DNA of 64,000 nucleotides from a virus (Duplodnaviria; Caudoviricetes). The notes beneath the pieces are model-generated. The model was given only the letters and a program-made list of their open reading frames with translations. It made no database searches and was not told the origin of the DNA. The translations under genes were made by a program, and so were the position numbers. Positions 7,210 to 15,166 of the stretch are shown here, in pieces (within the stretch, counting starts at the first letter, position 1; every line of letters starts with the position of its first letter). The stretch lies in the IMG/VR virus record IMGVR_UViG_3300025087_000689; one strand, written 5' to 3'.

Positions 7210-7220
7210 GTATGATATAG

Positions 7221-7309
7221 AGGAGGAAACCGGACTCGAACCGATAAGACGAGTTTTAAATTCGTCGGTAGATTAGTAATCTACTGCCTTGCCATTAGGC
7301 TATTCCTCC
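7221..7309 (-). tRNA. tRNA-Ser(ACT)
   Basis: GGAGGAA/TTCCTCC acceptor, GTAGA-TTACTAA-TCTAC anticodon arm, long variable arm, TTCGAGT T loop. Confidence 0.85.
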
Positions 7310-12953: not shown

Positions 12954-13062
12954 ATAATTTAAACAGTCTCCGGGGTGAGATTTGAACTCACAAGCCCTTA
13001 AGGGCAACGGATTTTACTTACTCATCTTACTTTCGTAAGCCTCTTACGAGTTTGAGTTTGGA

Positions 13063-13695
13063 CTATATCTTAGCCGTATCTTTCGAGTTAGGCTTTCCGG
13101 GCGTAGTCTCTGAACCTTCCTCATTTGAAAGAGGCTCGGCTGCTGATTGTCCAATATCACTTATTTTTATAACCTTCGCACTCGTTTTTTCAAACCATGC
13201 TGTAGTTAAGTGATCTCTTAGGATATTCCAGCAATTTTCGGAATTACTACTATGATTTTTCAACCATAGCGACCAATGATGTTCGATATGTCTATGTAGA
13301 GCTCCATGTGATCTACGATCCATTAGACTTAGATTATTTGGTTCATTGTTTGTTGGATTATAGTCTAGATGATGTGTTACAAATCCTTTTGGAGTTGTAA
13401 TACCAAGTTGATCTATAATCTTTCTTGCTTCGTATCTTCCATGCTGCCTAATAGGATCATTTTTATGAATCTTACTTGGTCTGCATTTTGCATGAGATAC
13501 TTGGCCAATTCTCCAAATCTTCATGTCTTTCTTACAGATAGAACATTTTGATATACCAAAGTAATGTCTTCCTACTTTCTGGTATCTGATTCTTGCTCTT
13601 TCTGTATTGTAGGTTCTAGAGTGTTCTAGACATCTTTTTCTTTCATGAACACCTTTTTTTCCACAATCAATACAGAGTTTATCTTCCTTCTTCAT
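13063..13695 (-). CDS. intron-encoded HNH homing endonuclease
   Basis: VTHHLDYNPTNNEPNNLSLMDRRSHGALH; SD TGGAGG; reads through the intron core. Confidence 0.85.
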   Translation of the reverse strand: MKKEDKLCIDCGKKGVHERKRCLEHSRTYNTERARIRYQKVGRHYFGISKCSICKKDMKIWRIGQVSHAKCRPSKIHKNDPIRQHGRYEARKIIDQLGITTPKGFVTHHLDYNPTNNEPNNLSLMDRRSHGALHRHIEHHWSLWLKNHSSNSENCWNILRDHLTTAWFEKTSAKVIKISDIGQSAAEPLSNEEGSETTPGKPNSKDTAKI

Positions 13696-13712
13696 ATAAT
13701 ACCTCCATAGAT

Positions 13713-13741
13713 ATTATACTTTGTTGGAAGACACAATTCAA
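13713..13741 (-). promoter_or_regulatory. sigma70-type promoter inside the intron L1 loop
   Basis: TTGAAT-N17-TATAAT upstream of the HNH. Confidence 0.65.
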
Positions 13742-13794
13742 GTATAATTGTGGAGAATCAGTCCGTTGTGTATGCCAGTTCCACCACCCGGAGG

Positions 13795-14068: not shown

Positions 14069-15166
14069 TCATTTAAACTCTATAACTTTATGGTTTTTGA
14101 AACATAAAAAGTTTTTTGCTCCAAGTTCCTTACTTAAGCATTTAGCAAATATTTCTGCATCTGGGTAAACATATTTATTTCCGGCTGAAGTATATACATA
14201 ACTCGTGACATGTTCGAAACAGGTTATAACTAAAGTAAAATCTTTAATATCATCTTTCTGTATTGCGTATCTAAGAAGATCTGCATCTAACATCGACACG
14301 CGAAATTCACCTTGGTATTTGTGAGTTACATTGGTTTCATTTGGGTCGTGTATGATATGTTCTTTAAGATCTTCATTAGTCATAGGACCATTACCATGGC
14401 GTGTTTGGTAACAACGGGTTACAAGATATATTTCTGGATCGGTCACTTCCAGCTTTTTTAAATTTGTCATACCACAGTTACCACGAGTAACATGTGGAAA
14501 GAATCCTATGTCTTGATCGAGCATTAAACCCTGAGATCCTTCAAAGATATTAACTGATTCAACTCGATTGATATCTCTATCCCATTTCATTAATTCGATG
14601 CGAATCTGTTTTTCTTCAAGTAAGAGATAACAAGTTGGTAGGAAATCTTTGTCGTATTCAGCGAATTCTTGTAAGTATTTTTTTCTTATCAACTCTAACT
14701 TAGTTTCGAAGATCTTTGGGTAAAGAAGATCACCTACAAGAAGTGAATAATGTTGTTCTTCGCGTTCAATGGTTTTACCAAAACCTACACCACACGTACC
14801 ATTTTTTCTGTTCCAGGAGTTTTGAGTATTAGTCCATTTATCATACGGAGTAGTAATAGGACATCTTGGATCAAGATATAGAGTAGGTTCAATACCTTTC
14901 TTACGTAGAACTTTTAATTCGTTCGTAATACCTACTGGATCAACCGTGCATAGTCGAGACCAATAGGTAATATTACCTCGAAAGCTACCTGAGCCGAAAT
15001 TGGAGAAAACATGGCGAATGCCATTATGTACAACAGTATGTCCCGCTTGATGACCACCACTAAATCGTGTAACGATAGCATCAGGATACTGAGAGCAAAG
15101 GTAGTCTGTTACGACACCTTTCGCACAGTCACCAAATCCAGCCCCAATTACGGCTAGGTTTTTCAT
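14069..15166 (-). CDS. purA: adenylosuccinate synthetase-like protein
   Basis: GFGDCAKG, RFSGGHQAGHTV, GTCGVG, FEGSQGLMLD..GFFPHVT, TRHGNGP. Confidence 0.85.
   Translation of the reverse strand: MKNLAVIGAGFGDCAKGVVTDYLCSQYPDAIVTRFSGGHQAGHTVVHNGIRHVFSNFGSGSFRGNITYWSRLCTVDPVGITNELKVLRKKGIEPTLYLDPRCPITTPYDKWTNTQNSWNRKNGTCGVGFGKTIEREEQHYSLLVGDLLYPKIFETKLELIRKKYLQEFAEYDKDFLPTCYLLLEEKQIRIELMKWDRDINRVESVNIFEGSQGLMLDQDIGFFPHVTRGNCGMTNLKKLEVTDPEIYLVTRCYQTRHGNGPMTNEDLKEHIIHDPNETNVTHKYQGEFRVSMLDADLLRYAIQKDDIKDFTLVITCFEHVTSYVYTSAGNKYVYPDAEIFAKCLSKELGAKNFLCFKNHKVIEFK

Follow-up and report, generated by a model that had tools for sequence, protein, structure and literature searches.

What kind of element interrupts the tRNA-Leu(UAA) gene carried by this viral DNA, and how can most of its catalytic RNA be a reading frame at the same time? 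The locus analyzed here lies in a stretch of 64,000 nucleotides, the whole of which is hereafter called the window, and it very probably holds a mobile, IC3-like group I intron of the kind known from bacterial tRNA genes, inserted between U33 and U34 of a phage tRNA-Leu(UAA), with an HNH gene that lies in the P1 loop and reads on through the ribozyme core. Bacterial tRNA introns, ORFs located in P1, overlaps between ORF and core, and the Leu.2Ug class of introns are all already known, and the element described here is an extreme but recognizable form of known mobile introns; it is the extent of its dual coding that is unusual.

A Split tRNA-Leu(UAA) Gene

An earlier note on this DNA had placed a group I intron within a tRNA-Leu(UAA) gene at 12967-13793, a reading with which both an ARAGORN intron call and an Rfam match of 58 bits agree. 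When introns are allowed, ARAGORN reports tRNA-Leu(UAA) on the minus strand at 13793-12967 (the call itself being 13793..12966), with an intron of 743 nt; at default settings, it misses the split tRNA-Leu gene of the window, and the intron mode is needed to recover it. The gene is laid out as follows.

13760..13793, minus strand: exon 1 of tRNA-Leu(UAA), with the acceptor 5' strand, the D arm, the anticodon stem 5' strand, C32, and U33 (ARAGORN with introns)
12967..13016, minus strand: exon 2 of tRNA-Leu, with U34 A35 A36, the anticodon stem 3' strand, a long variable arm, the T arm, the acceptor 3' strand, and the discriminator A (ARAGORN)
13017..13759, minus strand: group I intron of 743 nt, bounded by G1 and the terminal (omega) G (Rfam RF00028 at 58 bits, gathering score 50; terminal G in 22/22 family members)

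Exon 1 ends in ...ACGGACU, the intron begins with GAUUCUCC and ends in GAGUAAG, and exon 2 begins at 13016 with UAAAAUCCGU..., so that the predicted junction of the ligated exons reads ...GGACU/UAAAAUCC. Once joined, the exons form a canonical type II tRNA-Leu in which the loop reads CU-UAA-AA, the acceptor stem has 7 bp, the variable arm is long, and the T arm is normal; CCA is absent from the encoded 3' end. Uninterrupted tRNA-Leu genes match the ligated junction exactly over 23 nt in 43 viral contigs, and four metagenome contigs carry an uninterrupted gene whose junction is identical over ~44 nt. The existence of these uninterrupted, identical tRNA-Leu(UAA) genes implies that the ligated product is a natural tRNA sequence and that targets for homing are available. 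We take the reading of the locus as a split tRNA-Leu(UAA) gene with a group I intron to be confirmed.

The Ribozyme Core

The match to the Rfam model Intron_gpI (RF00028) extends from 13309 to 13036 and emerges with permissive filters only, the default gathering scan of the window having missed the intron. From an annotation perspective, standard tRNA and Rfam scans thus both miss the split tRNA-Leu, and the tRNA counts of such phages are accordingly underestimated. The Rfam model also imposes a poor local P1, when the actual P1 is long-range, as apparent from the elements listed below.

13757..13763, minus strand: P1 5' strand, made of exon GACU and intron GAU, with U33 (13760) in a U.G wobble (pairing search)
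13271..13277, minus strand: internal guide sequence AUUGGUC, the P1 3' strand, which is also ORF codons 140-142
13250..13269, minus strand: P2, a hairpin capped by GAAA, codons 143-149, with compensatory changes at 8/8 pairs
13095..13243, minus strand: P3 around the P4-P5-P5a-P5b-P6-P6a domain, and the P7 5' strand, codons 151-201 (helix map, covariation counts)
13061..13108, minus strand: P7 (GACUAC with AUAGUC) flanking P3' and P8, the UAG stop of the ORF (13065-13063) lying within the P7 3' strand
13020..13057, minus strand: P9 with P9a and P9b (GAAA loop in P9b), followed by AAG to the terminal G at 13017 (covariation, helix map)

The proposal that P1 pairs exon GACU/GAU with AUUGGUC across a loop of ~500 nt holds, the loop being 479 nt long; the guide itself, which had been put near 13265-13271, in fact occupies 13277-13271, six bases away. 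From P2 to P9, the core of the window intron is complete and every core helix is kept, with one P7 pair (C-A) left unpaired. GNRA loops cap P2 and P9b, P7.1/P7.2 are absent, and the P5a/P5b extension of ~60 nt is large and atypical for IC3.

Support for this fold comes from a family of 22 tRNA-Leu introns, that is, the window intron and 21 relatives, mostly from phages or viral contigs, which were gathered through homologues of the ORF and through core-motif scans of IMG/VR and of bacterial genomes. In the resulting core alignment (A4, 343 columns, 22 members), 98% of the cells in 14 helices are paired and compensatory, both-side changes are found at 41/70 pairs, whereas sliding the partners by one to three columns leaves only 30-41% paired, and none of 500 shuffles matches the observed pairing and covariation values. 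The P3-P9 core, including the P3/P7 pseudoknot, is supported by this covariation. The intron-side pairs of P1 are short, ranging from 0 to 3 bp among relatives, and show no clean covariation.

The layout can be aligned with those of cyanobacterial tRNA-Leu, tRNA-fMet, and tRNA-Arg introns, with an identity of 43-55% over shared columns. By its anticodon-loop site and its architecture, the intron is probably IC3-like, yet its sequence indicates that it is a separate lineage.

An Intron Family at Two Adjacent tRNA Sites

Within the family, the guide sequence varies together with the point of insertion. Eleven members, including the window intron, are inserted after U33 (CU/..g/UAAAA), and the guide is GGUC, which pairs with GACU, in 11/11; ten members are inserted after U34, the classical site (CUU/..g/AAAA), and the guide is GAGY, which pairs with CUU or ACUU, in 10/10. 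The guide type hence matches the inferred junction in 21/21 clear cases, which provides independent support for the U33 junction: ARAGORN and guide both agree with the insertion after U33 (13760/13016) that the earlier note had proposed. The alignments show what appears to be a single intron-nuclease lineage occupying two adjacent tRNA sites, U33 and U34, and the coupled shift of splice site and guide within one family makes it a clean case of a one-nucleotide intron move. One further relative of the same family (L006:1987-2841) has exons ..GACUC / AAAAUC, like a tRNA-Leu(CAA) split after C34 (Leu.3Cg class), yet its guide is GGUC.

The closest point of comparison is the cyanobacterial/plastid tRNA-Leu(UAA) intron (Leu.3Ug; Xu 1990 and Kuhsel 1990, as cited in PMC3984707). 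It had been stated beforehand that this classical intron is inserted after U34 and lacks an ORF, and the 10 cyanobacterial trnL introns that we checked (clean ARAGORN calls) do conform to it, with boundaries CUU/a..g/AAAA and lengths of 225-300 nt. The two introns share the same tRNA, an IC3-like organization with GNRA loops on P2/P9, and the absence of P7.1/P7.2, and ten relatives of the window intron sit at the very trnL site, U34/A35. The window intron differs in being inserted one base earlier (CU/g..g/UAAAA) and in having an ORF and a large P5a/P5b.

Could the true junction then be the classical U34/A35, and the intron an unremarkable representative of the cyanobacterial/plastid trnL lineage? 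Ten members of its own family are inserted there, but in the window exon 1 ends in ..CU and is followed by G, and a 7-nt anticodon loop needs UAAAA from exon 2; since the intron opens with G, shifting the junction to U34/A35 is not possible. The guide of the window intron, GGUC, is moreover of the type seen with U33 insertion, and its identity to cyanobacterial trnL introns (0.43-0.48) is not above its identity to fMet/Arg tRNA introns (0.46-0.55). We therefore consider the classical junction to be extremely improbable, and retain insertion between U33 and U34.

The U33 position is not new in tRNA-Leu, since Leu.2Ug is already present in the seed alignment of a 2020 preprint that brings the bacterial tRNA intron classes to 21 and whose seed includes Eba21.Leu.2Ug, with a GGGUCC guide (Williams 2020, bioRxiv 10.1101/2020.01.27.920355). 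Leu.2Ug shares with the window intron the tRNA, the insertion position, and the kind of guide (GGACU with GGGUCC), but its seed is short, ORF-less, and bacterial, and the scope of that survey was bacterial and archaeal assemblies, not phage genomes (Williams 2020, 10.1101/2020.01.27.920355). Phage group I introns, for their part, were placed in protein-coding genes by a 2014 review (PMC3984707), and the blastn matches of the core in known phages are likewise introns in protein-coding genes, not in tRNA genes. A core-motif scan of bacterial genomes returned 44 matches, only three of which fall in tRNA-Leu, which indicates that the motif is shared by a broader class of introns.

Several viral sequences met during these searches deserve mention in their own right. 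A protein-pattern scan of IMG/VR yielded two full-length relatives among 61 generic HNH matches. Five Rfam group I intron matches lie within ~3 kb of an IMG/VR contig (L001:2952-6091), which suggests an intron-riddled gene, and one of these introns matched the window ORF via the translated ribozyme core alone. In four other viral contigs (L015, L018, L030, and L036), unrelated sequence precedes the 3' two-thirds of a tRNA-Leu(UAA), which begins there with the D stem 3' strand; these could be attP-like tRNA fragments, or genes that are split elsewhere.

An HNH Gene That Reads through the Core

The intron carries a reading frame that starts within the P1 loop.

13063..13695, minus strand: HNH homing-endonuclease ORF, encoding 210 aa and closed by TAG (ORF list, Pfam HNH_3, PHROG HNH families, 75 homologues)
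13303..13392, minus strand: HNH_3 catalytic motif, residues 102-131 (Pfam; His/Asn invariant in alignment A2)

The Pfam HNH_3 match is marginal (25.7 bits for a cut-off of 24.8), and PHROG HNH families match the product at 2.6e-7; across the 25 homologous sequences of alignment A2, H108, H109, N117, N121, H130, and H134 are invariant, and the N-terminal part of the product contains two Cys-rich motifs. Searches of the PDB, either with Foldseek from a model of the ORF product or with a sequence profile, returned no significant match, I-HmuI coming out at E = 0.22 in the latter. Among the 75 homologues found in the protein collection, the distinct loci for which DNA is available are, in 8/8 cases and down to ~32-33% identity, tRNA-Leu genes split at the anticodon loop.

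The frame does not end where the catalytic RNA begins. Codons 140-211 cover P1', P2, P3, P4, P5, P6, P7, P3', P8, and P7', with the P3 5' strand to the P6 3' strand corresponding to codons 151-194 and the P7 5' strand, P3', and P8 to codons 196-208; the stop, codon 211 (UAG, 13065-13063), falls within the P7 3' strand AUAGUC. The description of an HNH gene that starts in L1, traverses the core, and stops at a TAG inside S thus agrees with the helix and codon map, and the overlap that had been claimed for its last ~65 codons is real but longer, amounting to ~72 codons. Altogether, ~215 nt serve both as catalytic-core RNA and as codons 140-211.

This feature is widespread in the family: the frame enters the core in 17 of the 18 ORF-bearing members, and in these 17 the stop lies anywhere from the P6 loop to near the intron end, at 137 nt to 4 nt from the 3' splice site. 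As a separate observation, a TAG closes the ORF of L138 (L138:65-819) ahead of P4, the rest of the frame being open in relatives, which points either to a recent knockout or to a phage reading TAG as sense.

Comparison with other introns puts the extent of this overlap into perspective. The tRNA-fMet intron of Synechocystis PCC 6803 with I-Ssp6803I (class fMet.2Ug of Williams 2020) is also inserted after U33 of a tRNA anticodon loop and also has an endonuclease ORF in P1 running into the core, with an overlap given as 61 nt in P1/P2 (Bonocora & Shub 2001; PMC3073962 Table 1). It differs in lying in the tRNA-fMet of a bacterial chromosome and encoding a PD-(D/E)XK nuclease, as opposed to an HNH nuclease in a phage tRNA-Leu, and its 61 nt compare with ~215 nt (P1' to P7') in the window. 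The td intron of T4 with I-TevI (PMC3073962) is, like ours, a phage intron whose nuclease ORF runs into core helices, and its ribosome site lies in a hairpin, as is predicted for ours, but it resides in a protein-coding gene and has its ORF in P6, an overlap of 20 nt, and a GIY-YIG nuclease; the host gene of the window intron is never translated, and its overlap spans nearly the whole core. The overlaps between ORF and core that have been tabulated range from 0 to 81 nt (PMC3073962), whereas nearly the whole ribozyme is also coding here.

Such overlaps have been explained by "core creep," described together with the sequestration of ribosome-binding sites, and a variable 3' extension among homologues is a prediction of this model (Edgell, Chalamcharla & Belfort 2011, PMC3073962), in keeping with the varying length of the 3' extension among the homologues of the window intron. 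We thus regard it as most likely that the core overlap arose by core creep, earlier stops being lost in a frame kept open by the conserved core. Three relatives lack the ORF, the shortest of which (L149, L149:2622-2899) is 278 nt long and has a 12-nt P1 loop at the place of the ORF; in a further relative, not one of these three (L148, L148:2162-2641; 480 nt), the HNH part is deleted when the N-terminal zinc-finger codons and the core are retained. The ORF-less L149 and the HNH-deleted L148 imply that the gene is an insertion in L1 and that the family displays a cycle of invasion, decay, and loss, of which the two introns look like stages of homing-endonuclease decay. With ORF-less, nuclease-deleted, and intact members, and with stops at many core depths, the family makes core creep directly testable.

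RNA and Protein Constraint in the Overlap

Which of its two products shapes the sequence of the overlap? For codon positions 1/2/3, pairwise identities amount to 0.48/0.52/0.43 in the N-terminal region of the ORF and 0.54/0.70/0.44 in the HNH motif; they reach 0.84/0.80/0.78 in the P3-P6 overlap. Judging from these comparisons, the sequence of the overlap is set by the RNA, which accounts for the protein alignment being most conserved in its C-terminal peptide.

There are nevertheless hints of some constraint at the protein level too, namely the frame-keeping lengths of the P6 loop and the helices modeled by AlphaFold2. The P6-loop segments of read-through members come in seven distinct lengths, all of which are 2 mod 3, when lengths are mixed in the other members. 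AlphaFold2 models two helices (residues 127-147 and 153-171) and one strand (residues 175-177), with a mean pLDDT per 10-residue block of 82-91 over residues 141-180 and of 47-56 over residues 181-210. On this basis, the core-encoded C-terminus might work in the endonuclease, the helices encoded by P1'-P5 being needed to bind DNA or, in a maturase-like fashion, the intron itself; this would refine rather than replace our main reading. That no full-length member other than L138 stops before the guide sequence is also in its favor. Against it, third codon positions are conserved like the first two, so that RNA alone explains the conservation, the most conserved peptide (residues 179-189) is modeled at low confidence, the stop positions are widely spread, and the AlphaFold confidence is perhaps inflated by RNA-driven conservation in the alignment. 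Because the model may be biased in this way, we hold a functional tail to be a tentative, minority reading, and the low confidence of residues 181-210 suggests that much of the tail encoded by the core may have no function as protein. A bolder combination is doubtful: ~130 nt, from the guide to P5b, would be truly dual-function, with RNA and protein constraining each other (two helices and a strand being needed by the nuclease), and the lineage would in addition have moved between U33 and U34 by retuning its guide from GGUC to GAGY. Our preferred reading remains that of an overlap whose sequence is dictated by the ribozyme.

A Possible Means of Keeping Ribosomes off the Ribozyme

A gene that reads through a ribozyme raises the question of when it is translated. 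Ribosomes crossing the core would be expected to unfold the ribozyme, and the host of the intron being a tRNA, otherwise untranslated, this conflict between translation and ribozyme folding is open to clean study. Two predicted features upstream of the HNH motif bear on this point.

13713..13741, minus strand: sigma-70-like promoter match TTGAAT-17-TATAAT in the P1 loop (consensus scan only; 10/12 match)
13694..13719, minus strand: predicted 11-bp hairpin, 13719-13709 (-10 box) with 13704-13694 (RNAfold -16.9 kcal/mol, z = -2.4)

The 3' arm of the hairpin comprises the last 3 nt of the Shine-Dalgarno sequence (SD), the spacer, and the first two bases of the AUG, with a pairing probability of at least 0.9, and in 13/18 relatives a local hairpin engages 10 or more of the 18 bases between positions -15 and +3 relative to the AUG. 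Since translating ribosomes would presumably unfold the ribozyme, the ribosome site may be locked in this hairpin in the read-through pre-tRNA. The promoter-like site, whose -10 box is the 5' arm of the hairpin, could then give rise to a short transcript with a free ribosome site, and RNAs beginning at the expected transcription start do fold weakly (-1.4 to -3.3 kcal/mol). The predicted arrangement of the start-region hairpin with a promoter-like -10 box resembles that of T4 I-TevI (PMC3073962).

As for the promoter itself, the HNH gene had been said to have its own within L1; the TTGAAT-17-TATAAT match is indeed present, but calling it a promoter goes too far, the number of such sites not being above chance: six promoter-like sites are found in this AT-rich region against 5.5 expected, with a sigma-70 consensus that may not be that of the host. 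Mononucleotide shuffles of the leader reach the promoter score in 2.5% of cases, and a strong promoter match is present in some relatives only.

A different control had been envisaged by the earlier note, in which the intron 5' end would act as a switch by pairing with the SD. UCUCCA (13756-13751) would pair with the SD UGGAGG (13707-13702), thereby coupling the formation of P1 with translation. The 6-bp complementarity exists and adjoins the P1 5' strand, but it does not belong to the favored fold: when forced, it yields -12.8 kcal/mol, ~4 weaker than the unconstrained fold at -16.9 kcal/mol, which uses another partner, and in relatives the partners of the start region are local and diverse, the first intron bases not being consistently among them. 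We deem this switch unlikely. The general idea that translation is kept away from the ribozyme is plausible, and the local hairpin is the means of doing so that we favor.

A Homing Element or a Relic

If active, the intron would spread as other mobile introns do. The RNA would self-splice, the nuclease would cut the uninterrupted tRNA-Leu(UAA) of coinfecting phages near the anticodon-loop site, and repair of the break would copy the intron into the cut tRNA-Leu(UAA) gene, that is, homing. The locus might conversely be a decaying relic, either because the intron has ceased to splice and the tRNA-Leu(UAA) gene is dead or because the nuclease is inactive and the intron is inherited only vertically. 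CCA is not encoded, the phage also carries a tRNA-Leu(UAG), degenerate relatives such as L148 are known, and the C-A pair of P7 is unpaired. These points must be set against the perfect cloverleaf formed by the exons of the window, the preservation of all core helices, an intact ORF with its catalytic residues present, and the occurrence of an identical protein in 37 assembly-collection blocks, including 25 with contigs >200 kb. We find a relic very unlikely, and favor a functional, mobile intron.

Genomic Context

The window has a G+C content of 36% and carries ten tRNA genes, all on the minus strand, between 5700 and 23400, interleaved with small ORFs. Megablast of 20 kb of the window against the INPHARED phages returned no match, and the identical endonuclease is encoded on metagenome contigs of up to ~221 kb; taken together, these two observations lead us to assign the window to an uncultured large phage.

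Two other genes of the window are worth recording. Just upstream of the split tRNA, at 14069-15166 (minus strand), lies a gene for a 365-aa short homologue of adenylosuccinate synthetase, which matches phrog_1211 ("2-aminooxy adenylosuccinate synthetase") at 2e-56 but scores only 41 bits with NCBIfam PurZ (cut-off 300); its role may be PurZ-like, in the making of 2-aminoadenine DNA. At 7220-7309 (minus strand), adjoining a tRNA-Ser(TGA) gene, ARAGORN calls a tRNA-Ser with anticodon ACT, hence with an unusual A34, which scores 55 bits against the Rfam tRNA model.
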